This document shows positions 1 through 53,990 of a stretch of 64,000 bases of DNA, piece by piece. The number at the start of each line of letters is the position of its first letter. Position 1 is the stretch's first letter. The stretch spans positions 51,339 through 115,338 of the forward strand of contig CALQZS010000001.1 in assembly GCA_943349945.1 (NCBI GenBank), read 5' to 3'. Position numbers and translations under genes: made by a program. Below the pieces are notes generated by a model. It saw nothing but the letters and a program-made list of their open reading frames with translations. It was not told the origin of the DNA and did no database searches. The stretch is from Candidatus Nomurabacteria bacterium. Lineage in GTDB: Bacteria > Patescibacteriota > Minisyncoccia > Phycocordibacterales > SBAW01.

Positions 1-953
1 CAGTCCTTACCTTTTACGCAACTCCCACCCCGTCGCACATACCCGCACAATTCTCGCCAAAAGACACTGGCGAGTTTGGGCTCCATGTCGCAGGATCGCC
101 CGAGAGTTTGGGCGAAGTGGTACTACTTAAAACACTTTTTGCAATACTCACCGAGTGGGGCGTGCCCGTGGCGCGCGTACGCGTCAACGCGCTAGGTGAC
201 AGAGACTCCAAAGCACGTTTCGAACGCGAGCTCCTTTCTTACTTACGCAGACACAGTGGCGACCTCGACCCTGCGTGCCAAGATACACTCACCACAAACC
301 CACTAGCCCCCTACACCTGCCAAAGCGAAGCGTGCCGACAGGTGCTTGCCGACGGCCCGCGTGCAGTCAACTTCCTTTCTGAAAAAAGCCGCTCGCACTT
401 TCGCGAAGTGCTCGAGCACGTAGAGAGACTAGGGCTCCCCTACGAGCTGGATGACCTGCTTGTTGGGGACGACCGCGAGCCGCGGATTGTGTTTGCAGTT
501 GATTTAGCAGAAGAGCACCCAACCGTGTTGGGCGGCACCGGCGGCCGATTTGACGAATATGTCCGCCGACTCACCAACAAAAAAGACGGCGCCGCGGTGT
601 CTGCGAGTATATTCTTTCGCAAAAAAGGAACCACAAGGTCGTGCTTTTCTGCACACACACCGCTGCGTAGTCCCAAAATATACTTTGTACAGTTGGGCCT
701 ACGCGCCAAACTCCAAGGCCTGGCTGTGGTAGATATGCTGCGCCAAGCGCAAGTACCCGTCTCGCAATCATTTGATGCAAAAAGCTTGGCGCCCCAACTT
801 GCCTCGGCAAGAACTCTGGGGGTGTCTCACCTGCTGATTATGGGCCAGCGCGAGGCGCTCGACGGCACGGTTATTGTGCGCTCGGCTACCAACAGCTCAC
901 AAACCATAATCCCGCTCACCACACTGCCTCGATTCTTGAAAAACCTGCGGTAG
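1..953 (+). CDS. hisS: histidyl-tRNA synthetase, C-terminal part (5' end lies outside the window)
   Basis: Frame is open from nt 3. The class II core region (GGTGGRFDEY) is followed by an HisRS-type anticodon-binding domain (HLLIMGQREALDGTVIVRS). Confidence 0.65.
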   Translation, partial: VLTFYATPTPSHIPAQFSPKDTGEFGLHVAGSPESLGEVVLLKTLFAILTEWGVPVARVRVNALGDRDSKARFERELLSYLRRHSGDLDPACQDTLTTNPLAPYTCQSEACRQVLADGPRAVNFLSEKSRSHFREVLEHVERLGLPYELDDLLVGDDREPRIVFAVDLAEEHPTVLGGTGGRFDEYVRRLTNKKDGAAVSASIFFRKKGTTRSCFSAHTPLRSPKIYFVQLGLRAKLQGLAVVDMLRQAQVPVSQSFDAKSLAPQLASARTLGVSHLLIMGQREALDGTVIVRSATNSSQTIIPLTTLPRFLKNLR

Positions 954-993
954 TTGCGGCCTATTTGAGCCTATGGTACTATGTGGCGTATCC

Positions 994-1248
994 ATGGCAA
1001 CAAACGCAGAAGTTACCAAAAACGACAATGAGACGGCGGTAAATCTTATCCGCCGCTTTTCTAAGCGCGTACAGGGCGCAGGCCTTATCCAACGCATGCG
1101 TAACCGCCGCTACTATGCCCGCATCAAATCACGCGAGGTGCGCCGCAAACAAACACTCAAGGTTATTAAGCGCCGAGAAAACGTGCAGGAGCTCATCAAG
1201 CTTGGCAAAATACTAGAGCGCACCACCCGCGGCCCACGTCGACGCTAA
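994..1248 (+). CDS. rpsU: 30S ribosomal protein S21
   Basis: Small basic protein with RRFSKRVQ...RRYYARIKSRE, resembling S21. Start is taken at the internal Met of ORF 973..1248. Confidence 0.65.
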   Translation: MATNAEVTKNDNETAVNLIRRFSKRVQGAGLIQRMRNRRYYARIKSREVRRKQTLKVIKRRENVQELIKLGKILERTTRGPRRR

Positions 1249-1262
1249 ATTGCGTACGTGCC

Positions 1263-1658
1263 ATGTCTCCTCAGTTCGAAAAAATAAAACAATTGGTACT
1301 TGGCAAAAAATACGACCTTTCGGTCGCTTTTTTGTCTCCCACAGAGATGCGTAAGGTAGACAAAAAGTACCCCCATCCTATCAACCCCGACGTTTCAGTC
1401 GGGGTCCCGACCAAAGCGTCGGGAAACAAGGCCAGCAACGTGCTGGCCTTCCCGCTTTCTGACACTTCAGGAGAAATTTTGCTCTGCAGAGATACTGCAG
1501 AAAAACAAGCGCCGCTGTATCACATGAGCAAGCGTACATTTGTCACGTATCTTTTTATCCACGGACTTTTGCACTTACGAGGGTTCGATCACAGTGTTAC
1601 AATGGAAGACGAAGAACGTCGAATTATGAAGAAATTCGGCCTTCGTACCCATGAGTAA
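1263..1658 (+). CDS. ybeY: rRNA maturation endoribonuclease YbeY
   Basis: Carries the zinc motif HGLLHLRGFDH in a 131-aa protein. Confidence 0.85.
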   Translation: MSPQFEKIKQLVLGKKYDLSVAFLSPTEMRKVDKKYPHPINPDVSVGVPTKASGNKASNVLAFPLSDTSGEILLCRDTAEKQAPLYHMSKRTFVTYLFIHGLLHLRGFDHSVTMEDEERRIMKKFGLRTHE

Positions 1659-2829
1659 AATTGTTACTGGCATAGATGTTGGCACACACCATGTAAAAGT
1701 GGTCATAGCGGAAGCAGCGGATGACCCGCGGCAGCCGCCGCGCATTTTGGGTACCGGCTACGCAGAAAGCCGTGGACTCAAACAAGGCTACATCGTGTCG
1801 GTACAGGAAGTATCACGCTCCATAGGGGCCGCAGTTGCACAAGCATCCAAAGCAGCACGCGTTAAGGTAAAGCGCGCCTACTTGGGGCTAGGCGGCGTCG
1901 GACTCGACGAGGCCTTTGCGCGTGGCGACGCAATGGTAGAACGCGGCAACTCCGAGGTAACCGACCGCGACATCCCCCACGCTATTGCGGCAAGCGAAAA
2001 AACACTCGCACCGTCTGCGCACCTTAACCGCAAAATCATCCACACCATACCGCTACAGTTTTCTGTCGACGGTGTACGCGTACTCGGCGGCAGCCCAATG
2101 GGCATGAAAGGCGTACGCATCTCGGTTGAAACACTTTTTATCACTTGCCTGGAGCGCCACGTCAGCGACCTTGTCGCCGCTACAGAAGACGCCGGGATAG
2201 AAGTAGAAGACGTGGTTGCATCACCCATTGCGGCAAGTTTTGTCGCACTGACCAAAATGCAAAAACGGGTCGGCTGCGTGTTGGCAAACATTGGTGCCGA
2301 AACATTGTCTATAGTGGTATTTGAAGACTCTCGCCCTATTTCTATAAAAATATTTCCTGTCGGCGCTTCTGCTATTACCCACGATTTGGCACTAGGGCTA
2401 CGCATCCCACCCGAGGATGCCGAGCAATTGAAACAAGGCGCAGTACTTGGTGCGCAATTTCCAAAAAAGAAAGTAGACGATTTGGTGTCCAGACGAGTTT
2501 CAGACATGTTTAAACTTGTCGAAGCACATTTGAAAAAAATCGGCAAAGATGAATTACTTCCTGCAGGTATTATTTTGACCGGCGGCGGCTCGTCGCTGCA
2601 GACCATGGCGGACTTAGCAAAAGCAGTGCTGCGGCTGCCGTCGCGCACCGCATCACTCACCGACAGTGCTGCAGCCAAAACCCAGCTCAAAGATGGCTCA
2701 TGGGCCGTGGCCTACGGACTTACGGTGTGGGGACTCACCCAAGGTGGCGATATGGAAGTCCACGAACCAAGCGGGTTTGGTGATTTTATAAAAAACCTCT
2801 GGCGCTGGTTTAAAAAGTTTTTACCGTAG
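1651..2829 (+). CDS. ftsA: cell division protein FtsA
   Basis: Actin-like ATPase with GIDVGT at the N-terminus and ILTGGGSSLQ, located upstream of ftsZ. Confidence 0.85.
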   Translation: MSKIVTGIDVGTHHVKVVIAEAADDPRQPPRILGTGYAESRGLKQGYIVSVQEVSRSIGAAVAQASKAARVKVKRAYLGLGGVGLDEAFARGDAMVERGNSEVTDRDIPHAIAASEKTLAPSAHLNRKIIHTIPLQFSVDGVRVLGGSPMGMKGVRISVETLFITCLERHVSDLVAATEDAGIEVEDVVASPIAASFVALTKMQKRVGCVLANIGAETLSIVVFEDSRPISIKIFPVGASAITHDLALGLRIPPEDAEQLKQGAVLGAQFPKKKVDDLVSRRVSDMFKLVEAHLKKIGKDELLPAGIILTGGGSSLQTMADLAKAVLRLPSRTASLTDSAAAKTQLKDGSWAVAYGLTVWGLTQGGDMEVHEPSGFGDFIKNLWRWFKKFLP

Positions 2830-2916
2830 GTCAAAAAACTTTGTTTGTCAAAGTTGCAAAGGGGCTCCTGAGTGGTAGAGTTGTCTCGACAGACTAACTT
2901 TAAAAAAACACTACGT

Positions 2917-4113
2917 ATGCCCCAGGTAAACCCAGAAATTGAAGCTTTCGCACGAATCCGCGTCGTCGGTGTTGGCGGCTCGGGCAAAAACGCCGTCAAC
3001 CACATGATGGAAAGCAAAGTGCGTGGCGTCGACTTTGTCGTGGTTAACACCGACGCACAAGACCTCCACCACAGCCTCGCAAAGAAAAAAATCCACATCG
3101 GCAAAAACCTGACCCGCGGTTTGGGTGCGGGCGCAAACCCAGACTTGGGCCGCCGCGCCGCCGAAGAAACTAAGGAAGAAATTCAGCAAGCCATGAAGGG
3201 CTCAGACATGGTGTTTATCGCTTGCGGTATGGGCGGCGGCACCGGCACAGGTGCCGCACCTGTGGTAGCCAAAACTGCAAAAGAGCTGGGCGCCCTGACC
3301 GTCGCAGTGGTAACCAAACCATTTTCATTCGAAGGGCAGCAGCGCCTACGCATGGCCGAGCAAGGTTTGGAGGATTTGCGCAAAGAGGTGGACGCGCTCA
3401 TCGTCATCCCCAACGACCGCATCTTGGCCACAGTAGCCAAAGACACCACGCTCAAGGCAGCGTTTGCCTTGTGTGACGATATTTTAAAACAAGCAGTCGA
3501 GGGAATTTCTGACCTTATCACCCACCCCGGCATCATCAACGTCGACTTTGCCGACATCCGCGCCGTTATGGAAAACGCCGGCTCGGCACTTATGGGTATT
3601 GGTGTTGCGTCGGGCGAAAACCGCGCAGCGGTTGCTGCCAAAGCAGCCGTATCCTCGCCACTGCTTGAGCTGTCTATAAACGGTGCAAAAGGTGTGCTGT
3701 TTGCGATCGCCGGTGGCGACGACCTGGGGATGGTAGAAGTGCACGAGGCAGCAAAAATCATCACCGAGTCAGTGGATGCAAATGCCAAAATCATCTTTGG
3801 TGCAATCAAAGACGAAAAACTCAAGAAAAACGACGTACGCGTAACGGTCATTGCAACTGGCTTCCCCGCTGTAGGCGTAACGCCTCGTGGCACACCATTG
3901 TTTAACTTTGCCCGCGACACAAAAGAAAAAGAGCCTGACGTCGCCCCTATCGGCAAAATATTTAACACACCAGCAGCACCCACAAAAGAAAAAGAGGAGG
4001 AGCCTAAAAAAGCCCCTGTCCAAGAGATTGAAGTGAAGCCAAAAAAAGACGAGGACGAAGACGATGAGTGGGGCGCGGTACCATCCTTCCTTCGCCGACC
4101 AAAAATTAAATAA
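2917..4113 (+). CDS. ftsZ: cell division GTPase FtsZ
   Basis: Contains IRVVGVGGSGKNAV and the GGGTGTGAAPVVA tubulin signature. The Met at 2917 gives an N-terminus of typical length (ORF 2872..4113). Confidence 0.95.
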   Translation: MPQVNPEIEAFARIRVVGVGGSGKNAVNHMMESKVRGVDFVVVNTDAQDLHHSLAKKKIHIGKNLTRGLGAGANPDLGRRAAEETKEEIQQAMKGSDMVFIACGMGGGTGTGAAPVVAKTAKELGALTVAVVTKPFSFEGQQRLRMAEQGLEDLRKEVDALIVIPNDRILATVAKDTTLKAAFALCDDILKQAVEGISDLITHPGIINVDFADIRAVMENAGSALMGIGVASGENRAAVAAKAAVSSPLLELSINGAKGVLFAIAGGDDLGMVEVHEAAKIITESVDANAKIIFGAIKDEKLKKNDVRVTVIATGFPAVGVTPRGTPLFNFARDTKEKEPDVAPIGKIFNTPAAPTKEKEEEPKKAPVQEIEVKPKKDEDEDDEWGAVPSFLRRPKIK

Positions 4114-4119
4114 AAATCC

Positions 4120-4192
4120 GCGAGTAAATAAGAAAAAGAGTGCGCTCCGGGCCGCTAGGCCAAGTCTAACCCTCTTTTTCTTATTTACTCGC
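4120..4192. repeat. perfect 21-bp inverted repeat (gcgagtaaataagaaaaagag / ctctttttcttatttactcgc) around a 31-nt GC-rich loop, downstream of ftsZ
   Basis: Arms at 4120-4140 and 4172-4192 are exact reverse complements. The stem is AT-rich and there is no U-tract after it. Confidence 0.8.
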
Positions 4193-4217
4193 TCCTCTCT
4201 ACTGGTATACTATCTCC

Positions 4218-5147
4218 ATGATTTATGACCTTGCAATAATTGGTGGCGGCCCTGCGGGTGTTGCTGCTGGAGTGTATGCTGCCCGCAAACGATTAAAAAC
4301 AGTTTTTCTTGCAGAGAGTATTGGTGGCCAAAGCACCGACTCCGTCGAGATACAAAACTGGATAGGCACCGAAAAAATATCCGGGCTTGATTTGGCAAAG
4401 TCGCTTGAGACACACTTGCACGCATACGCAAGCGATGTGGTGGATATACACATAGGTGCGCGTGCTACTGCGGTCACCAAAACCTCTACGGGTTTTTCTA
4501 TCCAAACAAATAAAGAGACGTTTGAGGCACGCGCCGTACTGGTAGCCACCGGTGGTTCGCGGCGCAAACTCGACATCCCCGGTGCGGCAGCGTTTGAGCA
4601 TAAAGGGGTTACCTATTGCGCATCTTGCGACGGCCCTATGTTTACAGGCCAAGACACTATTGTTGTTGGCGGCGGCAACGCCGGGTTTGAGACCGCCGCA
4701 CAACTGCTTGCGTATGCAAAATCAGTAACCCTGGTGCACCGTAGCCCCGACTTTGCCCGCGCCGACGCTGCAACCGTAAACGCCGTACTCGCCCACCCCA
4801 ACATGCGCGCCTTGGCCAACACAGAACCCGTGGAGGTAAAAGGTACTACGTTTGTAAACGCCCTTACAGTCAAAAATAAAGAAACTGGCGAAGTGTCGGA
4901 CATTCCTGTTGCTGGTATTTTTGTAGAAATTGGTATGACCGCCAACACCGACCTGGTCAAAGGCCTGGTAGACCTAGACGACTGGGGTCGCGTCAAAGTG
5001 GATGGCAAAAGCCAACGCGCATCACTACCGGGCATTTGGTCTGCGGGCGACTGCTCGGACGGTCTGTATCATCAAAACAACATCGCCGCAGGCGACGCGG
5101 TGAAAGCACTGGAAGATATCTACTTCTACCTTCGCGCAAACAAATAA
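4218..5147 (+). CDS. trxB: thioredoxin-disulfide reductase-like FAD/NAD(P) oxidoreductase
   Basis: Has the FAD-binding motif IIGGGPAGVAAGVYAARK, a redox-active CASC, and the second Rossmann motif VVGGGNAG. Confidence 0.8.
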   Translation: MIYDLAIIGGGPAGVAAGVYAARKRLKTVFLAESIGGQSTDSVEIQNWIGTEKISGLDLAKSLETHLHAYASDVVDIHIGARATAVTKTSTGFSIQTNKETFEARAVLVATGGSRRKLDIPGAAAFEHKGVTYCASCDGPMFTGQDTIVVGGGNAGFETAAQLLAYAKSVTLVHRSPDFARADAATVNAVLAHPNMRALANTEPVEVKGTTFVNALTVKNKETGEVSDIPVAGIFVEIGMTANTDLVKGLVDLDDWGRVKVDGKSQRASLPGIWSAGDCSDGLYHQNNIAAGDAVKALEDIYFYLRANK

Positions 5148-5188
5148 AAATCGGGCCGCCTTTGTAGGGCGACCCGAGCACGATTCGT

Positions 5189-5476
5189 CTATTTTCTTTT
5201 CTTGCGGACTTTTTTGGTCGGCACCCCTTCTTCGGGCCATCCGCCATAGTAATTCCACCCCAAAGCCACAGCAAGGCGAAACAGCGTGTATGCATGGGGC
5301 TTTCTGGTAATCCCCTGAGCAAAGTTGCTCACTGTCGCCGGACTCAAGCGCGCACTGTGCGCCACATGACCCCAGTTGACTCCGCGCTGACCATAAGCCC
5401 TGAACAGACGTCCACGCAGGTCGTCTACCCATTCTTCAAAATCAGATTCGTACGGCACGGGCATCTTCCGGGTCAT
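5189..5476 (-). CDS. helix-turn-helix DNA-binding protein, hypothetical
   Basis: Predicted start at MTRKMPV with a GGAG-like RBS. HTH-like segment LSPATVSNFAQG and a basic C-terminal tail (KKVRKKRK). Confidence 0.45.
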   Translation of the reverse strand: MTRKMPVPYESDFEEWVDDLRGRLFRAYGQRGVNWGHVAHSARLSPATVSNFAQGITRKPHAYTLFRLAVALGWNYYGGWPEEGVPTKKVRKKRK

Positions 5477-5751
5477 AGTAGCCCACTCCCCCCTGGAGCA
5501 AAGGCCCATACAACAGCCTCCGGTCCTTGCCGTCCTTTGCCCATACAGTAGACGATGACATCGTCCACAGTAGGGACAGTAGTCTCCCTTTCTTCCAGGA
5601 ATTCGGTCCCCTCGGGGTTCATCTTCCTACCATTTGCAGTATGGAAGAAGAGCCCACGGTGAAAGAGTCTGACCCCAAGGAAACCGAACCCTCCTCCGCT
5701 TCTGTTGGGGTAGAAGCGCACTACTCGCGCGCGTCCTATGGTTGTGTCCAT
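5473..5751 (-). CDS. hypothetical small protein (92 aa) upstream of the HTH gene
   Basis: Internal Met of ORF 5473..5928. The upstream part of that ORF lies in AT-rich promoter DNA. Its stop abuts the start of the HTH gene. Confidence 0.3.
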   Translation of the reverse strand: MDTTIGRARVVRFYPNRSGGGFGFLGVRLFHRGLFFHTANGRKMNPEGTEFLEERETTVPTVDDVIVYCMGKGRQGPEAVVWAFAPGGSGLL

Positions 5752-5920: not shown

Positions 5921-6400
5921 TTGCACACACTAAAACACTACTGGCTGGGCGCTAACTATGCCCTATACCTGGCGCTCAACGGGAGCATCGACATGGGGTA
6001 CAAAGACCTGAACATGGCTATAGGTACGCTCCAGGCTGTACCAGGCATCCGACACATTCTGCGCAACAAGATCCGCGGGTGGGCTACGCTGGCAGCAGCA
6101 AAGACTACCAGCCACAAGGCCGCAAGCGCACATGAAAAAACGCTTGCGTACATCCAACTGACCTGGGCGCATATTCGCGCCCACTCAACGAGAGCCGATA
6201 CCGAGAAGTCTCTCATGTCGGCACGAAACTTGGTACCCTGGATAACCACAAACACAAAGGAAGAGCGTTTGTGGTATGCCGACAGCCTGAAAAAGATCGG
6301 CGACCTCCACATGGCGATGGGCGGAGTGTATGAGGCGCTTGCCCCAGCATTCTACCAAGAAGCCACTCGCGAAAGAGCAGCCGCCGGACAACAGGCCTAG
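5921..6400 (+). CDS. hypothetical protein
   Basis: Strong SD (AAGGAGG) 7 nt before a TTG start, with a TATAAT -10 element upstream. 159 aa with no recognised motif. Confidence 0.55.
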   Translation: MHTLKHYWLGANYALYLALNGSIDMGYKDLNMAIGTLQAVPGIRHILRNKIRGWATLAAAKTTSHKAASAHEKTLAYIQLTWAHIRAHSTRADTEKSLMSARNLVPWITTNTKEERLWYADSLKKIGDLHMAMGGVYEALAPAFYQEATRERAAAGQQA

Positions 6401-6405
6401 ACGCA

Positions 6406-6448
6406 AAAACACGCAACCCCACCCTAGGGATTGCGTGTTTCTTTTTTG
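6406..6448. terminator. bidirectional intrinsic terminator between convergent genes
   Basis: Stem aaacacgcaa / ttgcgtgttt is flanked by an A-run and a T-run. Confidence 0.6.
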
Positions 6449-6464
6449 TGTTTACCTGTGTCGC

Positions 6465-6857
6465 TTACTGTGCAAACCAGCTTGTATGCCACTGCTGCAT
6501 CATTTCAATTTCTTTTGTTTGTGCCGCAATTATATCGTTACCCAGTTTTTGTAGCTCGGAACGCTTGGTCCCTGCAATTAATACTTTCGACATCTCTATA
6601 GCGCCTTGGTGGTGCACTATCATCCCTTCCAAAAATGCCTCGTCGAGCTCGTCCCCTGTTTTGCCACTTAGCCCCATCATCATGCCACCCATCGCACCAT
6701 GCATGCCAGACTGCGCATCACGAGACTCCATACGCCAGCCCCATTTGTCATGCATACCATCCCATCTGTCTGATTTGTCTCCTACCACATACCCAAACAG
6801 CCCGCCCACCAGTAACGCGCCCGCTGCTACAAGCAGCATTTCTTTTTTTATCTGCAT
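6465..6857 (-). CDS. DUF305-family metal-binding protein, membrane-anchored
   Basis: N-terminal TM segment and the characteristic HHQGAIEM motif. Confidence 0.75.
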   Translation of the reverse strand: MQIKKEMLLVAAGALLVGGLFGYVVGDKSDRWDGMHDKWGWRMESRDAQSGMHGAMGGMMMGLSGKTGDELDEAFLEGMIVHHQGAIEMSKVLIAGTKRSELQKLGNDIIAAQTKEIEMMQQWHTSWFAQ

Positions 6858-6903
6858 ATGCCTCTAGTATACACCCGCCACACAAACCAAACCCGCCTCC
6901 CTC

Positions 6904-6942
6904 TACGAAGGTCAGTCCTTCGTCGAAGGACTGACCTTCGTA
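6904..6942. repeat. perfect palindrome (core 35 nt: cgaaggtcagtccttcg|tcgaaggactgaccttcg), copy 1
   Basis: Exact self-complement. An identical 35-mer occurs at 30898-30932. GGGATAAC-type DnaA-box-like motifs follow at 6951-6985. Confidence 0.9.
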
Positions 6943-6994
6943 AGCCAAGATGGGGATAACTTTTTTGTGGGATAATTAAAGGCTTTTGTTTATT

Positions 6995-7015
6995 TGTGAC
7001 CTCACCGGGAATCAG
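6995..7015. repeat. direct repeat of the tRNA-Glu 3' end, 175 nt downstream of that tRNA
   Basis: tgtgacctcaccgggaatc here versus tgtgaccccaccgggaatc at 7170-7188 (1 mismatch). Confidence 0.7.
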
Positions 7016-7171
7016 CTGCACGAAATTGTTTAATTTTCATGGTCACAAGTCAAATTTTGTCGTCACAAAATTCGCTCGCGACCCCGGCTCGCGATTTTGC
7101 AAGTGCAAAACATCGCTACGCCCGTCCCAAAAGCAGAAAACCTGCCGCAGGGCAGGTATTTCTGTCTTTTG

Positions 7172-7243
7172 TGACCCCACCGGGAATCGAACCCGGATTA
7201 ACGGCTTGAAAAGCCGGCGTCCTAACCGTTAGACGATGGGGCC
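7172..7243 (-). tRNA. tRNA-Glu (anticodon TTC)
   Basis: Cloverleaf GGCCCCA...CTTTTCAAG...GGTTCGATTCC...TGGGGTCA. CCA is not encoded. Confidence 0.85.
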
Positions 7244-7327
7244 GTTTACCCACCCACTTGGGCGGATACAATGCAAAATATAGCTTAAAACTCAAAAAAA
7301 TGCTATTTTGCGGAAGACTAGACTCAA

Positions 7328-7414
7328 GGAGAGGTGGCTGAGTGGTCTAAGGCACCGGTTTCGAAAACCGGCATGGGGGAAACCTCATCGAGGGTTCAAA
7401 TCCCTCCCTCTCCG
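7328..7414 (+). tRNA. tRNA-Ser (anticodon CGA)
   Basis: GGAGAGG acceptor stem, anticodon loop TTCGAAA, long variable arm, and T-loop GGTTCAAATCC. Confidence 0.9.
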
Positions 7415-7420
7415 CAAGTA

Positions 7421-7450
7421 AAAAATACGCGCCATTTGGCGCCATTTTTT
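7421..7450. terminator. intrinsic terminator after tRNA-Ser (A-run, GCGCC/GGCGC stem, T-run)
   Basis: Sequence aaaaaatacgcgccatttggcgccatttttt. Confidence 0.7.
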
Positions 7451-7583
7451 AGCGAAGAGGAACAAAGTGCGGGGCACTTTGTGTGAGGTATTTGAAAGCC
7501 GGAACGGGCCCCGGACCAGCAGGTACGGGGGTGAGGCAGGGTCGTGCGGCCAAAGTTGCGACGGGAACTTTGGGACGCCTGAC

Positions 7584-7604
7584 CAAATCCCTCCCTCTCC
7601 GCAA
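7584..7604. repeat. exact 21-nt direct repeat of the tRNA-Ser(CGA) 3' end (caaatccctccctctccgcaa)
   Basis: Identical to 7397-7417. It lies 187 nt downstream of the tRNA, at the left edge of a low-GC island. Confidence 0.85.
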
Positions 7605-7637
7605 AAGTTCGAAATTATAATATGGTATAACTCCTTT

Positions 7638-8237
7638 GTGGACATTGCTGCACAAATTTTAGCATTTTTTGGAAACAACACGCCCCTGGTATCTTTTTTT
7701 GGAGCAATTATAGGTGGCGAAGAAACTCTCGTATTGCTTGTTATTTTTGCAGCGCGAGACACGCTTAACCTTTGGCACATTGTAATCTTTTTTTATGCCG
7801 GAGTAATGGTGTCAGATGCTTTGTGGTACCTGGTCGGCAGATCCAGAGTATTTAATTGGCTCATCACGCACAGACTTACGTTTAATGCATATACCTATTG
7901 GGGAAAGATGCTATACAAAACCATGGGCAACAACACACTGGAAGTATTGTTCATGACTAAATTTTTATATGGTTTTAGAATCCCTACCATCATGTATTTT
8001 GCTCAAGAACGTTTGTCGTTTCGAGCTTTTATACAATACTCACTACTGACCAACTTGATTTGGATGACCATAATCACCGTCTTTGCATGGTTTGCAGGAA
8101 AAGGTATCAAATTTGCTATGCATTTTTCACACAACATTCTCCTGGACGTCTTCCTCATTGGTGTGGTTATGGTTCTTTTTGCTCTTGTTGCTAGAATTGC
8201 CTCAAAGTACACAAAATCATGGCTCCAAAAGAAATAA
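7638..8237 (+). CDS. DedA/VTT-family-like integral membrane protein (start uncertain)
   Basis: Multi-TM protein with a GGEETLVLL segment resembling the DedA PGE..L.LAG motif. It sits in a ~40% GC region. The GTG at 7638 is the first plausible start after the tRNA repeat; the upstream part of ORF 7467..8237 overlaps the repeat and is rejected. Confidence 0.5.
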   Translation: MDIAAQILAFFGNNTPLVSFFGAIIGGEETLVLLVIFAARDTLNLWHIVIFFYAGVMVSDALWYLVGRSRVFNWLITHRLTFNAYTYWGKMLYKTMGNNTLEVLFMTKFLYGFRIPTIMYFAQERLSFRAFIQYSLLTNLIWMTIITVFAWFAGKGIKFAMHFSHNILLDVFLIGVVMVLFALVARIASKYTKSWLQKK

Positions 8238-9661
8238 CTTCCCTCATACTCGAAGCCGAGTCAACAAGAGTTTTTTTCTTGATACACGGGTATACAGGCA
8301 GCTCGGACGACTTTCATAACTTGCCAGGTATTTTGCATAAAAAATTTAACGCAAACGTTAAAGTTATTTTGTTGCCTGGGCACGGCACCAAAGTTGAAGA
8401 CCTCGACCACATCACCTACGCAGATTTTATGTACGTGCTGCGCAACGAACTAGAAAAAGAACTGTCGAAGGGTATGGAGGTTATCTTAGGCGGGGTAAGT
8501 ATGGGTGGGCTGTTTGCGCTCTTACTTGCAGCCGAATACCCCGTACAAGGAGTTTTTAACGTTTCCTCTCCCTATGTTATGAAGTTTCCCTTTAACCTAC
8601 CTGGCTTAAAATACATTCTGAAGTACAAAAAATACTGGAAAAAGGCAACACAATCGTCGACACATTCAAAAACATCTGGGTCGTTTAGTTACACGCATAT
8701 GCACTCTAATGGATTTTATATAGCCGTGCAGGCAAAAAAAGAACTGCGGCGCGTTCTAAAAAATGTATCCAGCCCTCTACTCACCATATTTTCCACCAAA
8801 GATGACATTGGGCACATACGGTCGGTACGCAGCATACAAGAGGGCGCAAACTCCAGCATCAAAAGAGAGGGCATCTTCCACATAGAGCCGCATAATGTAT
8901 TTTATTCTAATGAAGACCACAAGGTAAATGATGAGATAGTACGATTTATTGAATATATAGATTTGCCAGAAAAGCACTTAGGCAGCCGCGAAAAAATTGC
9001 AGCCATTATCCCCGCCTATAACGAAGGGTCAAGAATAGAAGCAGTTTTGCGCGCAGTGACCGCTGTTTCTTTGATAGACGAGGTGATTGTTGTAGATGAC
9101 GGCTCTACAGACAATACACGCGAAGTAGTAACAAAATTTCCCAACGTCACCTACATACAAAACGAAGTAAATATTGGCAAAGCAGGCTCGCTAGACAAAG
9201 GAGTGACCCACACAGACGCATCTATATTGTTTTTCTGTGATGCCGATCTTAGAGGCATCACGCCTACAATGATTGAGCAGATACTCGAACCCGTCCTATT
9301 TCGCACATACGCGATGTTTATCGGCTTGCGCAATAATCCCATGCAAAAATCTGTGCACTTGTTTGCAATAAATTCTGGCGAACGCGCCCTAACACGAGAA
9401 GTATGGGAGAAACTACCCCACTATTTTAAACACCGATACCGAGTCGAAGCTGGCTTAAATTATATGGTACGAAAATATTTTGGAGGATTTGGCTACCGAA
9501 CCTTCGATTACTCGCAGCCCTTAAAAGAGAGCAAGTACGGACTAGTGAGAGGCACTTACTTGCGCTGGAGCATGAATATGGACGTCTTGCTAGCCTATAC
9601 TCGAGAAATTATCGAGCGGCTTTTTCGACCGCAAAGACTCTATACTTGCCATGACAAATAA
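8219..9661 (+). CDS. fusion protein: N-terminal alpha/beta-hydrolase (esterase) domain and C-terminal family-2 glycosyltransferase domain
   Basis: GVSMGG nucleophile elbow in the N-terminal half. The C-terminal half has IIPAYNEGSRIE...VVDDGSTDNT...CDADL. Low GC. Confidence 0.75.
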   Translation: MAPKEITSLILEAESTRVFFLIHGYTGSSDDFHNLPGILHKKFNANVKVILLPGHGTKVEDLDHITYADFMYVLRNELEKELSKGMEVILGGVSMGGLFALLLAAEYPVQGVFNVSSPYVMKFPFNLPGLKYILKYKKYWKKATQSSTHSKTSGSFSYTHMHSNGFYIAVQAKKELRRVLKNVSSPLLTIFSTKDDIGHIRSVRSIQEGANSSIKREGIFHIEPHNVFYSNEDHKVNDEIVRFIEYIDLPEKHLGSREKIAAIIPAYNEGSRIEAVLRAVTAVSLIDEVIVVDDGSTDNTREVVTKFPNVTYIQNEVNIGKAGSLDKGVTHTDASILFFCDADLRGITPTMIEQILEPVLFRTYAMFIGLRNNPMQKSVHLFAINSGERALTREVWEKLPHYFKHRYRVEAGLNYMVRKYFGGFGYRTFDYSQPLKESKYGLVRGTYLRWSMNMDVLLAYTREIIERLFRPQRLYTCHDK

Positions 9662-9688
9662 GCCTCTTTTTGCTACAGTAGGGCCAAC

Positions 9689-9764
9689 GCGCGGTTAGCT
9701 CAGTTGGTAGAGCATCCCCTTGACGTGGGGAGGGTCACAGGTTCGAGTCCTGTATCGCGCACCA
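9689..9764 (+). tRNA. tRNA-Val (anticodon GAC), CCA encoded
   Basis: GCGCGGTTAGCTCAGTTGGTAGAGC...TTGACGT...GGTTCGAGTCC...GCGCACCA. Confidence 0.9.
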
Positions 9765-10603
9765 TGGATTTCAAAGACAGAGTCATCCTCTACCACGGCA
9801 ACTGCCTCGACGGCTTTGGCGCGGCGTATGCTGCCTGGAAAAAATTTGGCGACTCCGCAAGTTATATTGCAGTCTTCCATGGCGACGCACCACCTACAGG
9901 ACTTGAGGGTAAGGAGGTATACATCGCCGACTTTAGCTATCCAAAAGAGCAGCTACTCGAGCTGGAGAGGCAGGCAAAGCGCCTGGTCGTGCTCGACCAT
10001 CACGAAGGGGCAAAGGGGTATGTCGAGCTTGTTCGCGAGCACATCTTCGACAACGACCGCTCGGGCAGCGGCATCGCGTGGGAGTATTTTAACCCCAACA
10101 TTCCCCTGCCTCGCCTACTTGCCTACATACAAGACGGCGACTTGTGGCGACACAGCCTGCCGCAGTGGCGCGAAGTTGGGGCATATCTAAGCACCGCGGC
10201 ATTTACCTTCGAAACCTTTGACACCCTCGCCATAACATTTGCAGACGATGTGGAGTTTGAAAAAATAATCCAAAAAGGCGCAGCCTTTGCCGAGTATCGC
10301 GACTACCTGTGCCAAAAGTTTATCGAGAACGCAGAAGAGGTGCAGCTGGACGAGTTTAGTGTGCTTGCCGTCAACACGCCGCGGCTTTTTAATTCTCAAG
10401 TGGGCAACCTGTTAGCACAGAAGCATCCACCCTTTGCAATTGTGTGGTATCCAAGTGATAAAGATTGGCATTTTTCGCTCCGCGGCACAGGCGAAGTAGA
10501 CTTGGCTGCTGTGGCACAGCGCCGCGGCGGCAACGGCCATCACAATGCGGCAAGCTTCCGTATCCCCTTTGGACAACCATTCCCGTTTACTCGCAAAGGT
10601 TAG
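9764..10603 (+). CDS. nrnA: DHH/DHHA1 phosphoesterase (NrnA-like nanoRNase/pAp phosphatase)
   Basis: Motifs VLDHH and GGNGHHNAASF. The ATG overlaps the tRNA-Val CCA by 1 nt. Confidence 0.8.
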   Translation: MDFKDRVILYHGNCLDGFGAAYAAWKKFGDSASYIAVFHGDAPPTGLEGKEVYIADFSYPKEQLLELERQAKRLVVLDHHEGAKGYVELVREHIFDNDRSGSGIAWEYFNPNIPLPRLLAYIQDGDLWRHSLPQWREVGAYLSTAAFTFETFDTLAITFADDVEFEKIIQKGAAFAEYRDYLCQKFIENAEEVQLDEFSVLAVNTPRLFNSQVGNLLAQKHPPFAIVWYPSDKDWHFSLRGTGEVDLAAVAQRRGGNGHHNAASFRIPFGQPFPFTRKG

Positions 10604-10605
10604 TT

Positions 10606-11850
10606 ATGCGTGTACTAGCAATAGAAACGTCGTGCGATGAGACAGGTATCGCGATAGTAGAAGGTATAAAAACTAGCGCACCAGGAGGTTTTACCTTTAC
10701 CCTTTTGGGTGCTGCGGCGCTCAACTCGCAAGCAGCACTGCACGCACACTACGGCGGCGTCTTTCCCAGCCTTGCCAAGCGCGAGCACGAAAAAAACTTG
10801 CCGGTTATTTTAGCGCAGGCACTAATGCATGCACAGCCGAAATTCGCACGAGAAAATAGTCTGGCCCGAAGCTCGTCCGAAGACGAGCAAGGGAGAACCG
10901 AGGACTTTTTCGAGGCGAATTTTGGCGAAGCAATAAACGCTTTACACATAGACGCCATAGCCGTGACCCAAGGCCCTGGGCTTGAACCCGCACTGTGGAC
11001 AGGTATCACCTTTGCACAAAACCTCGCAAAAGAAACAGGACTGCCGTTGTTGCTAGCCAACCATATGGAAGGGCATCTTATCTCATCTCTTGCACAACCC
11101 GAACATTCTAGCATTCTGCAGAATGCTAGAATGTTTACACTAGAAAATGTGCAGCTACCAGTGCTTGCACTGCTCATCTCGGGCGGACACAGCGAATTTG
11201 TGTTGATGAAAAACTGGTTCGAATACTCCGTAGTGGGAGAGACACAAGACGACGCCGTAGGCGAAGCCTTCGACAAAGTTGCACGCATGCTCGGACTCCC
11301 CTACCCAGGCGGCCCCGAGATATCCAAAATTGCTGATGTCGCTAGAAAAGCGAAGATGCAGAGTTTGGAGGGGCTCCACAGCGCGTCTGCATCTTCGCTT
11401 GTTCTCCCACGCCCTATGCTCCACAGCAAAAATTTAGACCTTTCTTTTTCTGGACTCAAGACCGCTGTACTGTACGCGCTGCGCGACTTGGGCGGCATAC
11501 AAAAACTATCGCACGAGCAGATAGCAGAATTTGCCCGAGAGTTTGAAGATGCCGTAGCCGACGTGCTGGTAGCCAAAACTCGGCGCGCATTGGAAGAAAC
11601 TGGCGCCCAAACATTTGTAATCGGCGGCGGTGTTGCAGCAAACACCTACCTACGCGAGAGGCTTAGCGCGTGCGTGCAAAACGAGTTCCCCCACGTGGCC
11701 CTGCGACTCCCCGACCTCTCTATAACAGGCGACAACGGCATCATGGTGGCACAGGCTGCGCTTGCCCGCGCACTTTCTGGCTTGGACGACACCCCAAAGG
11801 GCGAGGTACGCGCCTACAGCAATAGGTTCTCGATTTTAGCGCCAAAATAG
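10606..11850 (+). CDS. tsaD: tRNA N6-adenosine threonylcarbamoyltransferase TsaD
   Basis: Contains LAIETSCDETGIAIV and VIGGGVAANTYLRERL. Start is taken at MRVLAIE within ORF 10465..11850. Confidence 0.9.
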   Translation: MRVLAIETSCDETGIAIVEGIKTSAPGGFTFTLLGAAALNSQAALHAHYGGVFPSLAKREHEKNLPVILAQALMHAQPKFARENSLARSSSEDEQGRTEDFFEANFGEAINALHIDAIAVTQGPGLEPALWTGITFAQNLAKETGLPLLLANHMEGHLISSLAQPEHSSILQNARMFTLENVQLPVLALLISGGHSEFVLMKNWFEYSVVGETQDDAVGEAFDKVARMLGLPYPGGPEISKIADVARKAKMQSLEGLHSASASSLVLPRPMLHSKNLDLSFSGLKTAVLYALRDLGGIQKLSHEQIAEFAREFEDAVADVLVAKTRRALEETGAQTFVIGGGVAANTYLRERLSACVQNEFPHVALRLPDLSITGDNGIMVAQAALARALSGLDDTPKGEVRAYSNRFSILAPK

Positions 11851-52397: not shown

Positions 52398-53987
52398 ATG
52401 GATATACGTTCAGTACGGGCTCGGGCGGGTGCTTTTTTTGTGTCTATGCGCACTAAAGTAGTTGTACTTTGGGCAGGGTACCGCGCACGGCCACTGTGGC
52501 AGCAGGGACTTTTGGCACTTGTAGCACTTGCACTGCTCTGGGGCCTTTTTTCTTTTTTTACGACAAGCCCGACTGTAGAGTCTGCAAACAAACCTCGCGC
52601 CGTGGCGCTTGCTAGTGTGGGCGAGTTAAACGGCGGCTCAGTCGGCGGCAACTTCATAGGCACCGTGCGCTCAATAACCGAGGCAAATATTTTGGCACAA
52701 AGCGGCGGCACGGTGCGCGCAGTGCACGCTAGCTTGGGCAGATACATCCCTGCTGGATTTATCATTGCCGAACTCGACAATGCATCCGAGCGCGCAGCGG
52801 TGCTCCAAGCAGAAGGTTCGTACGAAGCAGCACTTGCCGCACGCACTGTGGCACAGCAGCAAGCACAAAACACCAACCAATCTTTGACCGAGGCTGCGGT
52901 GTCTGCACGCAACACCTACCGCAGCAGCTACACCACGCTCGACATCACGCTCAACACCTATGTCGATACTTTTTTTGGCTCCGCAACTTCGTTCGGGCCA
53001 AAGCTTCTTATTAACCCAGACTTGGGGCCTTACTACACCCTACCTAAAGCGCGCCGCGAAATAACCGACCAGATGCGCGATTGGAAAAATGCACTAGGCA
53101 CCGCACAAACACGCGACCCAGAAACACTGCTTGCAGAGGCCGAGGTGGTGGCACGCAGCATCTCTGACTTGCTGGTCAAGCTGGGTAGCGCAGCCAACCG
53201 CCGCGACTCTGGAGCTAACGCAACACAACTAAGCGCACTCGCCACAGCACAAACTACCGTCGATGCACAACTAACCGCGCTCTCCACCGCGCGCAGCTCA
53301 TACCGTGCCGCAGCAACTGCAGCCGCAGTGGGCAAAACACAAACCGAGTCTGGCACCGCCACAGCCAGCGCCGACGCCGCAGTCAAACAAGCACTGGGGG
53401 CGCTGCGCGGTGCACAAGCAAATTTTGAAAAAACAGTAGTCCGCGCACCCCTGGCCGGCACGATAAACTTCTTGCCGCTTCGCGTGGGCGACTATGTTAC
53501 CTCGTTTACCCATGTCGCAACGGTGGCACAAAACGGCGCGCTCGAGGTAGTTACCTATGTCTCGCAAGCCGACCGCGACTTACTCTCTGTGGGAGCCAAA
53601 GTAACTCTCGACGGGGCACCCGGCACTGTTACCTCCATTGCCCCAGCACTCGACCCCGTGCGCAAACAAATTGAGGTACGCATCGCCGCAGCAGCAGGCA
53701 GCACATTGGTCAACGGCCAGTCGGTGCAGGTACGCTTGGCGAGCGCTACCCCAAGCCCCACCACCAGCAAAGGTCCCACAACCCTTCCCCTCTCGGCAGT
53801 CAAACTCCTCACCGACAAGCGCATCGTGTTTGTGGTCGAGGATGGCCGCCTTGTAGCACAAGAAGTCGAGGTGGGCGAAGTACGCGGTGACCGCATCGAG
53901 ATAGTCAGTCCGCTTGCTGCCGACTTGCGCATTGTTGTAGACGCACGCGGCTTGGTCGACGGCGAAAAGGTAGTAACCCTCCCCTAA
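52398..53987 (+). CDS. efflux transporter periplasmic adaptor (membrane fusion protein)
   Basis: Anchor, coiled coil, and barrel-sandwich motif (VVRAPLAGTINFLPLRVGDYV). Confidence 0.75.
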   Translation: MDIRSVRARAGAFFVSMRTKVVVLWAGYRARPLWQQGLLALVALALLWGLFSFFTTSPTVESANKPRAVALASVGELNGGSVGGNFIGTVRSITEANILAQSGGTVRAVHASLGRYIPAGFIIAELDNASERAAVLQAEGSYEAALAARTVAQQQAQNTNQSLTEAAVSARNTYRSSYTTLDITLNTYVDTFFGSATSFGPKLLINPDLGPYYTLPKARREITDQMRDWKNALGTAQTRDPETLLAEAEVVARSISDLLVKLGSAANRRDSGANATQLSALATAQTTVDAQLTALSTARSSYRAAATAAAVGKTQTESGTATASADAAVKQALGALRGAQANFEKTVVRAPLAGTINFLPLRVGDYVTSFTHVATVAQNGALEVVTYVSQADRDLLSVGAKVTLDGAPGTVTSIAPALDPVRKQIEVRIAAAAGSTLVNGQSVQVRLASATPSPTTSKGPTTLPLSAVKLLTDKRIVFVVEDGRLVAQEVEVGEVRGDRIEIVSPLAADLRIVVDARGLVDGEKVVTLP

Positions 53988-53990
53988 CAT

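Follow-up and report, generated by a model that had tools for sequence, protein, structure and literature searches.

A low-GC accessory cassette at a tRNA-Ser/tRNA-Val hotspot of an Adlerbacteria-like Patescibacterium encodes a DedA protein and a hydrolase–glycosyltransferase fusion that probably glycosylate a membrane lipid

The 64,000 nt of DNA analysed here (the window) come from an Adlerbacteria-like Patescibacterium (CPR) with an insertion hotspot at a cluster of tRNA genes. These genes, tRNA-Glu(UUC) (7171–7243, minus strand), tRNA-Ser(CGA) (7328–7415, plus strand) and tRNA-Val(GAC) (9689–9764, plus strand), are all Rfam tRNA matches, and in an Rfam scan of 6800–9900 at E values up to 1 only these three reached the gathering score. 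Between tRNA-Ser and tRNA-Val, positions 7605–9688 have a GC content of 42.0%, against 52.5% elsewhere in the window (z = −6.2). In a sliding scan of 2084-nt segments the GC minimum (41.99%) starts at 7596, and the next-lowest value outside the island is 47.3%. The low-GC island of about 2 kb that an earlier, sequence-only reading placed between these tRNA genes is therefore the lowest-GC stretch of the window. The deviation extends to third codon positions, at which the two genes of the island have the lowest GC3 among 47 genes (0.46 versus 0.568 ± 0.048), but not to codon-usage distance, which for both lies within the range of the window's other genes.

Comparison with relatives defines the edges of the cassette. 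The DNA of about 42% GC that is missing in four of them (L095, L097, L098 and L099) runs from 7605 to 9647 on the plus strand. The adjoining flank (9648–9688, plus strand) is conserved with L095 and L006 and contains a promoter-like site of tRNA-Val (ATGACA-17-TACAGT). The right edge of the non-conserved DNA (9647/9648) falls within the final codons of the second gene of the cassette, and the last codons and stop of that gene (CAT GAC AAA TAA) lie inside the −35 box of this site. The cassette holds two genes only, and no integrase or recombinase was found in it. Its position at a tRNA 3′ end, its absence from close relatives and its deviant composition are those of a tRNA-linked genomic island.

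The 3′ end of tRNA-Ser is present in two exact copies. The sequence CAAATCCCTCCCTCTCCGCAA occurs at 7397–7417 (plus strand), where it spans the T-loop to the tRNA 3′ end plus 2 nt, and again at 7584–7604 (plus strand, 21/21 identical), at the left edge of the low-GC DNA; chance would be expected to yield 0.01 matches, and the window contains no third copy even at 3 mismatches. The view of this repeat as a scar flanking the island did not survive closer inspection. The exact copies enclose only a 166-nt spacer (7418–7583, not assigned to a strand; 57% GC, with a terminator-like hairpin at 7429–7442), no copy of the tRNA-Ser 3′ end is recognisable at the right end of the island (5/12 positions match at the junction, as read by eye), and direct repeats of the tRNA 3′ end thus do not flank it. 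A homologue of the spacer was found in none of the other loci compared. We infer that the second repeat copy is the displaced former 3′ end of tRNA-Ser and that the spacer is a remnant of a later integration at this gene. A decayed tRNA-Ser duplicate at 7500–7604 was also considered, and was rejected because only the last 21 nt match. A near-copy of the tRNA-Glu 3′ end (about 21/22 nt; 6991–7013, not assigned to a strand), 177 nt from the tRNA-Glu gene, is an att-like scar at a second integration site. Around the copies of the gene pair in L010, L093 and L094 no tRNA-end repeats were found; the L010 copy adjoins tRNA-Glu in the opposite orientation.

The first gene of the cassette (7638–8237, plus strand) encodes a DedA/VTT-family membrane protein, assigned from the VTT profile and an alignment of homologues. 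Its true start is the GTG at 7638, replacing a 256-aa ORF from 7467, and the same start is used in 17/17 aligned homologues; its stop overlaps the second gene by 19 nt. The resulting protein of 199 aa has four separate hydrophobic regions and the conserved motifs GGEE, SD..WY and KFxYGxR, with G26, G27, E28, S59, D60, K108 and R114 invariant. Its size and its conserved acidic and basic core residues are as in the DedA family, the canonical second Arg being here, we presume, an invariant Tyr120. The match of this single protein to Pfam VTT_dom (PF09335; 22.4 bits, E 1.8e-4) is below the gathering cut-off of 33.9, and no NCBIfam model matched it. Across the family, 18/18 aligned members match VTT_dom at E ≤ 1e-3 (best 4e-10) and most homologues carry a precomputed PF09335 match. 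The earlier description of a DedA/VTT-like protein in the island is supported.

The second gene (8219–9661, plus strand) encodes a bifunctional hydrolase–GT2 protein of 480 aa, identified from Pfam, homologues and a fold search. Residues 16–250 form a serine hydrolase resembling Est30 and monoacylglycerol lipases, and residues 258–470 form a GT2 domain of GT-A fold. A frameshift artefact was rejected as the source of this layout: the identical protein recurs on 13 contigs, which stem from five or more separate samples or records, and most of the best 120 homologues listed share its length and both domain sets. The single ORF is thus a real gene, but the architecture is not rare. Fusions account for 41 of 119 classified metagenome loci, and among the 150 top-scoring clusters at 50% identity about 12 are full-length fusions. 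The hydrolase and GT halves are separate genes with a 4-nt overlap in at least one locus (L145). The analysis shows that the cassette is a translationally overlapped two-gene operon for a DedA membrane protein and a hydrolase–GT2 protein that lacks TM helices.

Fold, GxSxG elbow and Ser-Asp-His triad identify the hydrolase domain (8264–8968, plus strand) as an alpha/beta-hydrolase. Its oxyanion-hole motif (H23-G24) is invariant, and the triad deduced from 38 sequences comprises S94 (36/38, with Cys in 2), D195 (34/38, with Glu in 4) and H225 (38/38). The domain scores 28.7 against Abhydrolase_1 (cut-off 25.8), matches Est30 over residues 16–248 (phmmer E 8e-16) and reaches Foldseek TM-scores, normalised by target length, of 0.80–0.85 to bMGL and LipS. 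It resembles the Est30/bMGL carboxylesterases in this full-length match and in its elbow, HG motif and triad, but differs from them in being fused to a GT, in an identity of 17–24% and in a cap with a conserved KKYWKK motif.

The GT2 domain (8990–9628, plus strand), defined by Pfam and by invariant motifs, exceeds the gathering score of PF00535 and has the DxD motif and GT-A fold of the family. Its invariant residues comprise DDGSxD (293–298), DAD (341–343), SGER (386–389), E410/G412/N414 and K436/E437/K439, and the acceptor half contains five invariant basic residues. The domain ends in a long hydrophobic or amphipathic helix (442–469), and no TM helix is predicted in the 480-aa protein; in one fusion homologue (P0104) the C-terminus is extended by a hydrophobic tail resembling membrane-spanning segments. 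With the polyprenyl-phosphate GTs of the GtrB/ArnC/DPMS type the window GT shares the DxD motif, and it has stand-alone relatives with the two C-terminal TM helices of the GtrB/ArnC architecture. C-terminal extensions of at least 90 aa occur in 23/35 stand-alone clusters, and all 27 distinct extension sequences examined have two predicted TM helices. Eight of these two-TM GTs are 35–48% identical to one another, and the window GT is 41% identical to a reference two-TM GT and retains every invariant residue. Unlike the GtrB/ArnC/DPMS enzymes, however, the window GT itself has no TM helices, its sequence matches to them are limited to the nucleotide-binding half, and it falls short of the NCBIfam equivalog cut-offs by a factor of 10 to 20 (ArnC PRK10714, 23.1 versus 529; PpgS, 36.4 versus 370; AglJ, 35.1 versus 325).

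GpgS is a soluble, retaining enzyme with 3-phosphoglycerate as acceptor, and Halanaerobium, one of the hosts of the family, is a halophile. The halophilic hosts and the lack of a TM helix in the window protein would both fit a soluble GpgS/MpgS-like enzyme that glycosylates a small molecule (for example a compatible-solute precursor), which the hydrolase would process and with which DedA would be linked through export or incidentally. We consider this very improbable. The score against GpgS (PRK13915) is 61.8 bits where the cut-off demands 262, a wide shortfall, and significant similarity is confined to the nucleotide-binding half (residues 256–364). The region aligned to GpgS residues 159–214 amounts to only about 24 residues, some 30 fewer than in GpgS, so that a full-length GT81 (GpgS) match including the acceptor-binding region is not seen, and no invariant His, compared with GpgS, was found in the GT half of the family. 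Furthermore, the family is tied to a membrane protein, with DedA adjacent in 72–92% of informative clusters, and includes TM-bearing members (two TM helices in 23/35 stand-alone clusters). With a family profile, DPMS and GtrB rank above GpgS, and the best PHROG match of the GT is 'GtrB-like O-antigen conversion'. As fold searches do not separate the polyprenyl-phosphate GTs from GpgS, the acceptor is deduced rather than read from structure.

The link between DedA and this GT2 subfamily is very strong. Of 8 distinct genomic contexts that were read directly, 7 have an adjacent DedA gene, as do 24/26 informative non-redundant metagenome fusion clusters and 26/36 stand-alone GT clusters, and the gap between the DedA and GT homology regions is typically −40 to +30 nt. 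These data show the pair to be a conserved module of CPR bacteria, DPANN archaea and Halanaerobium, with three natural variants: a GT with two TM helices, a fusion of GT and lipase-like hydrolase, and a GT and a hydrolase encoded by separate genes. GT-only loci number 54 of the 119 classified, and the hydrolase is missing in about half. In Halanaerobium, the fusion gene has as neighbours a VTT-PAP2-LssY_C protein, two PMT_2 (ArnT-type) GT-C genes, a second GT2, a LAB_N protein and a gene with a Glycos_transf_N (KdtA-type) domain. In the window, a scan of eleven large ORFs found no GT-C family; one of the window's proteins, a TPR protein of 792 aa, has no Pfam match over its first 567 aa. A first scan of a genome collection with the fusion alignment gave back-translated patterns of generic GT2 motifs, and a family-specific DNA signature was used in their place; at least one full-length relative (L012, Saccharibacteria) was among the matches listed in that first scan. 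A defence or phage origin was rejected, with no PADLOC hits, only generic GtrB-like and esterase PHROGs, and no match to the module among 2.9 million viral contigs.

In the literature we found nothing specific on the hydrolase–GT fusion or on DedA in CPR/DPANN. The nearest parallel is the YclJ regulon of B. subtilis (yngABC and ykcBC), which contains the DedA protein UptA, the GT2 YkcC, the GT-C YkcB and the GtrA-like YngA; UptA is co-regulated with this GT2/GT-C glycosylation pathway and is thought to close the lipid-carrier cycle, and DedA-PAP2 fusions are documented (doi 10.1101/2022.02.03.479048). Common to both systems is a genetic tie between a DedA-family protein and a GT2, in the regulon one thought to load sugar on undecaprenyl phosphate. 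In contrast, the window pair is a single overlapping operon without an adjacent GT-C, GtrA or UGPase, its GT lacks TM helices and carries an N-terminal serine hydrolase, and the module, whose function is predicted from its genes, is hosted by CPR, DPANN and Halanaerobium. In the lipid-carrier glycosylation module proposed by the sequence-only reading, the pairing of DedA with a GT stands very firmly; the lipid acceptor is putative, and the fold searches are ambiguous with respect to GpgS.

The closest relative found, L095, has the same tRNA frame and is 98% identical to the window in FtsZ, 96% in TrxR and 93% in ValRS. It is homologous to the window up to the 3′ end of tRNA-Ser, and again from a point 41 nt ahead of tRNA-Val. 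The interval holds a 717-nt insert with an unrelated 214-aa ORF and no DedA–GT pair; this cargo is also of low GC (38–44%), and at its right junction (CACTCTCCGCAA|TGACAAATAAG) the tRNA-Ser 3′ end is matched at 11/12 positions. The pair is also missing in L097, L098 and L099, which are more distant than L095. Serine recombinases lie near the same tRNA cluster in L098 and in a strain variant (L001), whose large serine recombinase element sits at the 3′ end of tRNA-Glu. The interval between tRNA-Ser and tRNA-Val is a variable accessory hotspot: the pair is absent from L095, as expected of an accessory slot, but that junction holds another insert and is not empty. In its location at a tRNA 3′ end, a direct repeat that begins in the T-loop, deviant composition and variable cargo, the cassette resembles tRNA-gene-linked islands, at which variable cargo is common in Patescibacteria (PMC12455944). 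It differs from them in that it has no integrase, the repeats flank a 166-nt spacer and the cargo is old (dS >1).

The age of the cassette emerges from L006, a more distant relative that carries the pair, apparently at the same junction. Window-to-L006 dS values are 1.39 for the fusion, 2.8 for DedA and 1.6–2.2 for flanking genes, all saturated, and in an NJ tree built without bootstrapping the fusions of the window and L006 group with a clade that contains all four Paceibacteria-named homologues of the set. Because L006 shares the pair and the apparent junction at a saturated dS like that of the flanks, the cassette is regarded as an old resident and not a recent import. Several observations do fit recent horizontal acquisition, in which a low-GC donor supplied two genes to tRNA-Ser and left the 21-nt repeat as the att scar of the island. 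These are the 10.5-point GC drop (z = −6.2), the framing by tRNAs and an exact 21-nt repeat, the absence of the pair from the closest relative, the interleaving of bacterial and archaeal homologues in the same unbootstrapped tree, and a FLIMKNY content of 41–50%, typical of low-GC organisms, against 29–36% in neighbouring proteins. In nine other hosts with flanks of at least 50% GC, moreover, the module matches host GC, and it is therefore not intrinsically AT-rich. However, the repeat pair encloses only the spacer, codon-usage distance is ordinary for the window, and the cassette has neither an integrase nor viral matches; the L006 dS values and shared junction largely refute recent acquisition, which we regard as improbable. 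Of the 'acquired' module proposed earlier, the accessory cassette at a tRNA hotspot is retained, but recent acquisition is not, given dS values of 1.4–2.8 to L006.

It is possible, if somewhat unlikely, that the low GC is intrinsic to the genes, through AT-rich amino-acid content, weak expression or mRNA selection, and is uninformative on horizontal origin. The module is AT-richer than its flanks in 49/65 loci (median −2.1 points, Wilcoxon p = 2e-7), its amino-acid composition is AT-skewed, and the window and L006 have the same GC3 (0.46) although dS exceeds 1, which suggests equilibrium. Yet the usual deficit is 2 points and not 10, hosts with flanks of at least 50% GC have a module mean of 53.5% GC with a deficit of 0.3 points, and the unrelated cargo of L095 in the same slot is also AT-rich. 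An old cassette faces its own difficulty here, as the pair remains poorer in GC than its flanks, by about 10 points, although dS is saturated.

Taken together, we propose with moderate confidence that an accessory cassette without an integrase, at the tRNA-Glu/Ser/Val hotspot, carries a lipid-glycosylating DedA–GT module. Insertion of the cassette at the tRNA-Ser 3′ end would predate the divergence of the window lineage from that of L006, and the att copy on its right side would since have decayed. A later integration at tRNA-Ser may have displaced the old 3′ end to 7584–7604, leaving the 166-nt spacer, and in the L095 lineage the pair would have been replaced by a different insert. The probable task of the operon of DedA and esterase-fused GT is to glycosylate a membrane lipid. 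The GT would act on the cytoplasmic side of the membrane, with a nucleotide-sugar as donor and a phosphate-bearing lipid, in all likelihood polyprenyl phosphate, as acceptor; DedA would move either the glycosylated lipid or the released carrier across the membrane and may also anchor the TM-less enzyme there. The hydrolase domain would remove an ester-linked acyl group from donor, acceptor or product, which is the weakest part of the model. A conceptual parallel exists in lipid A aminoarabinose modification, in which the GT2 ArnC forms a polyprenyl-phosphate sugar that ArnD deacylates before flipping. ArnD, however, is a metal-dependent deformylase of another fold and a separate protein, and a lipid-linked sugar is only a putative substrate of the window enzyme.

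The lipid need not be polyprenyl phosphate, since PetA-type DedA proteins are reported also to flip glycerophospholipids such as phosphatidylethanolamine (PMC10193950). This activity would suit glycerolipid remodelling, in which the lipase domain strips acyl groups from scavenged host (lyso)lipids or from monoacylglycerol, the GT acts on diacylglycerol, a lysolipid or a phosphatidyl acceptor, and DedA scrambles the product. In structure the N-terminal domain most resembles monoacylglycerol lipases, the Halanaerobium VTT-fused PAP2 could act on phosphatidate too, and the module is concentrated in CPR and DPANN; CPR bacteria are described as having no membrane-lipid synthesis of their own and as being enriched in lysolipids (doi 10.1101/465690 / PMC7242380). 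Nevertheless, we hold this to be rather unlikely. The core module is DedA plus GT, about half of the classified loci having no hydrolase; the two-TM stand-alone GTs and the Halanaerobium ArnT-type GT-C genes resemble polyprenyl-phosphate-sugar systems, and no glycolipid synthase is among the fold matches listed.

In summary, the locus is an ordinary genomic island with an uncharacterised variant of a DedA-linked lipid-glycosylation module, and its persistent 10-point GC deficit at saturated dS is a small puzzle about amelioration. DedA proteins have only recently been tied to the flipping of undecaprenyl phosphate and phospholipids, and few substrates have been assigned. The operon of DedA and this GT2 subfamily is a simple system in which the product of the partner enzyme could reveal the DedA substrate, and the module bears on membrane tailoring in organisms without lipid synthesis. 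More speculatively, and in our view decidedly unlikely, DedA and GT, with an optional lipase-like domain, might be a self-contained lipid-modifying machine characteristic of ultra-small CPR/DPANN episymbionts unable to make lipids, with DedA as tether and dedicated product flippase and the lipase-like domain deacylating scavenged host lipids, to yield glycosylated or lyso-type membrane lipids. If this is true, DedA proteins would gain a defined substrate and a defined enzymatic partner encoded in the same operon.

The DNA between tRNA-Ser and tRNA-Val (7605-9647) holds a gene for a DedA-like protein and a gene for a 480-aa fusion of a hydrolase with a family 2 glycosyltransferase (GT2). The sharp fall in GC that the sequence-only reading had placed between a repeat of the tRNA-Ser end and tRNA-Val was borne out, with 42.0% GC for 7605-9688 against 52.5% for the remaining window (z = -6.2). 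In sliding windows, the 2084-nt minimum for all 64 kb begins at 7596, and the lowest window not overlapping the island has 47.3% GC. Both ARAGORN and Rfam place tRNA-Glu(UUC) at 7171-7243 (minus strand), tRNA-Ser(CGA) at 7328-7415 (plus strand) and tRNA-Val(GAC) at 9689-9764 (plus strand). The 21-mer CAAATCCCTCCCTCTCCGCAA occurs in two exact copies (0.01 matches expected by chance), one at 7397-7417, spanning the T-loop to the tRNA-Ser end plus 2 nt, and one at 7584-7604; no third copy was found in the window with 3 mismatches allowed. The 166-nt spacer between them (57% GC) carries a terminator-like hairpin, and low-GC DNA begins immediately 3' of the second copy. As the duplication is limited to 21 nt, a decayed tRNA-Ser duplicate was ruled out. 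The island is placed as an ordinary tRNA-linked accessory region, a type reported to be common in Patescibacteria (PMC12455944).

All 17 aligned homologues of the DedA-like protein start at the position of GTG 7638, which argues from the alignment that the gene is 7638-8237 (199 aa) and not the 256-aa ORF from 7467. Public gene calls set the start at 7467, 57 codons further upstream, across the spacer and tRNA-Ser repeat (7467-7637), and are contradicted by this alignment. The proposed DedA/VTT-like identity is supported by the family as a whole, in which 18/18 aligned members match Pfam VTT_dom at E of 1e-3 or better, although the window member (22.4 bits) is below the gathering score of 33.9.

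The fusion gene (8219-9661) overlaps the DedA-like gene upstream by 19 nt, and its product qualifies both as an Est30/MGL-type hydrolase and as a GT2. Residues 16-250 align full length with Est30-type carboxylesterases (E 8e-16), and the AF2 model (pLDDT 88) matches bacterial monoacylglycerol lipases in structure (TMt about 0.8). Judged from 38 aligned sequences, the active site of the hydrolase appears intact: H23-G24 and H225 are invariant, S94 is kept in 36 (Cys in two) and D195 in 34 (Glu in four). Residues 258-470 form a GT-A domain (PF00535, 82.5 bits; domain model pLDDT 92.7) with the invariant motifs DDGSxD, DAD (341-343), SGER, ExGLN and KExK. No TM helix is predicted in the window protein, and a long hydrophobic/amphipathic helix (442-469) closes the GT domain. 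A conserved, sigma-70-like candidate promoter for tRNA-Val lies at 9648-9688 (ATGACA-17-TACAGT, extended -10 TG); the last codons and stop of the fusion ORF fall within its -35 box, and owing to this overlap the final 10 residues are non-homologous, with pLDDT below 50.

The single-ORF fusion withstood the frameshift check, since 13 contigs, drawn from five or more separate samples or records, carry the identical 480-aa protein, which has same-length homologues. A search of 5.8 billion proteins gave 447 matches among 8,000 scored candidates; most of the best 120 have equal length and both domain sets, under host names of Paceibacteria-type CPR, Woesearchaeota, Nanoarchaeota and Halanaerobium. 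When 1.84 billion cluster representatives were searched with a profile, 719 clusters matched at E of 1e-30 or better, and the best 150 included about a dozen full-length fusions, together with many lone GTs and many lone hydrolases of the same subfamilies. Thus, the architecture is not the rarity it had been taken for. Literature searches found no paper on this combination of DedA and fusion cargo.

A DedA gene lies directly beside the fusion in seven of eight distinct contexts read: the window, the relative L006, the loci L010 and L012 (Saccharibacteria), Woesearchaeota (L093), Zambryskibacteria (L094) and Halanaerobium (L092), where the partner is a VTT-PAP2-LssY_C fusion protein. The eighth context, L007, has no DedA beside the fusion. 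The family-specific signature GER..W..K..E.GLN, scanned for at the DNA level, had zero matches in viral contigs and marked at least 120 loci in a metagenome collection, of which 119 were classifiable and fell into 92 clusters at 90% identity. Among these loci, a DedA gene adjoins fusions in 24/26 informative clusters (21 upstream, 3 downstream) and stand-alone GTs in 26/36. Of the stand-alone GT clusters, 23/35 extend at the C terminus by at least 90 aa, and two TM helices are predicted in each of the 27 different extensions examined. Identity among eight of these TM-bearing relatives is 35-48%; the window GT domain shares 41% identity, and every invariant residue, with the reference member. 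In a few loci hydrolase and GT are separate genes, truly so in L145 (4-nt overlap). Therefore, the conserved core is DedA with this GT, to which a hydrolase or a TM pair is an alternative appendage. In other metagenome loci (L152, 579-2019; L123, 255-762) a single in-frame stop divides the hydrolase half from the GT half, which suggests genetic code 25, as expected where CPR lineages read UGA as Gly.

What, then, is the acceptor? Fold searches with the GT domain do not separate polyprenyl-phosphate GTs (PcManGT 19.0, DPMS 18.3, ArnC 17.8, GtrB 16.5) from GpgS, and in a family-profile search DPMS and GtrB rank above GpgS; all significant profile matches are confined to the nucleotide-binding half. 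The fusion approached no NCBIfam equivalog cut-off, and failed the GpgS and ArnC-type equivalog tests. We lean slightly towards a membrane lipid because of the two-TM relatives, the DedA coupling, the additional hydrophobic C-terminal tail of one fusion homologue (P0104) and the Halanaerobium neighbourhood; polyprenyl phosphate specifically is less likely than not. The published DedA-PAP2 synteny and fusion, and the co-regulation of B. subtilis UptA with a GT2/GT-C surface-glycosylation pathway (doi 10.1101/2022.02.03.479048), add weight to a lipid acceptor. One guess for the hydrolase is that it removes an acyl group from a lipid-linked sugar, with ArnC and ArnD as the analogy; another is that it deacylates lipids. 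The Halanaerobium saccharolyticum cluster (L092, 1-8743) resembles an envelope-lipid modification locus; it encloses the fusion among two PMT_2 (ArnT-like) genes, a 239-aa GT2, a LAB_N protein, the 707-aa VTT-PAP2-LssY_C protein and a Glycos_transf_N (KdtA-type) gene.

The host is an Adlerbacteria-like Patescibacterium, whose strain is also present in MAG GCA_943349155.1 and whose relatives carry the names Adlerbacteria and Minisyncoccia. Its genome also encodes, at 52398-57092, an RND transporter of the AcrB type, which scores 607 bits against ACR_tran, and a membrane-fusion partner of the HlyD type. The nearest relative found, L095 (FtsZ 98%, TrxR 96%, ValRS 93% and TsaD 85% identical; dS 0.8-1.0), retains the tRNA-Glu/Ser/Val frame without DedA or fusion gene. 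DNA homology ends at the tRNA-Ser 3' end and restarts at 9648; between these breaks L095 carries 717 nt of inserted low-GC DNA. Its 214-aa ORF (6191-6835; low GC, hydrophobic N- and C-terminal segments) is unrelated to the pair and matched nothing in Pfam, PADLOC or PHROG. The right junction of L095 is CACTCTCCGCAA|TGACAAATAAG, with 11/12 identity to the tRNA-Ser 3' end, and TGACAAATAAG is the -35 region of the tRNA-Val promoter-like site; ancestrally, tRNA-Ser would have been followed directly by TGACAAATAAG. In L097, L098 and L099 the flanking genes are as in the window, with different cargo and no pair. The Ser-Val junction is essentially empty in L099 (52 nt) and L010 (141 nt), but gene order differs.

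The more distant L006 (TsaD 73%, ValRS 91%) has the pair, and its right junction, TCTTGCAA|TGACAAATAG, aligns with ACTTGCCA|TGACAAATAAG of the window. Window-to-L006 dS is 1.39 for the fusion, 2.8 for DedA and 1.6-2.2 for DHH, TsaD and ValRS. As L006 is the outgroup to window and L095 on TsaD and ValRS (DHH being nearly equidistant), the simplest history would be a single old insertion, later replaced in L095. The island is accessory, as the claim of acquisition implied, given its absence from L095, L097, L098 and L099, but it is old, being common to L006 at saturated dS. A second element may later have integrated at tRNA-Ser, shifting the former 3' end by 187 nt; the perfectly preserved second 21-mer copy fits an event later than the cassette insertion. 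In L010 (fusion 59% identical) the pair adjoins the same tRNA cluster, inverted beside tRNA-Glu; no repeats were found around it, and this copy may be either an orthologue or an independent insertion.

Large-serine-recombinase elements occur at this tRNA cluster in the strain variant L001 (tRNA-Glu 3' end) and in L098. From 7168 onwards L001 and the window are 100% identical, but left of the tRNA-Glu 3' end L001 has a different segment (1-4016) that encodes a large serine recombinase of 575 aa; there the window (6991-7188) has about 150 nt between tRNA-Glu and a near-copy (~21/22 nt) of its 3' end. Members of the population differ in whether tRNA-Glu carries an integrative element. Downstream of tRNA-Glu, 64 nt (7022-7085; L095 5696-5759) are 100% identical amid genes only 72-82% identical at the DNA level, with no Rfam match. 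In L098, a serine recombinase, an N6/N4 methylase and a DUF4238 gene (676-5540) adjoin the cluster, and an RVT_1 reverse transcriptase beside a bAvd gene near tsaD (10315-11726) looks like a diversity-generating retroelement.

The low GC of the pair has persisted. Pair GC is 42% in the window and L006 and 37.5% in L010, against flanks of ~50-52% in all three, so that a deficit of 9-13 points is held in three lineages despite saturated synonymous sites; GC3 is 0.46 in window and L006 alike, with dS saturated. The amino-acid content of the two proteins is AT-skewed, which does not explain GC3. Across 65 metagenome loci the module lies ~2 points below its flanks (49/65 negative, p = 2e-7), and it matches its surroundings in the nine hosts whose flanks reach at least 50% GC.

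In summary, the cassette carries an uncharacterised variation on the known pairing of DedA and a lipid-carrier glycosyltransferase. It is not a surprise, but should be useful to those who study DedA proteins or the membrane biology of CPR and DPANN organisms.
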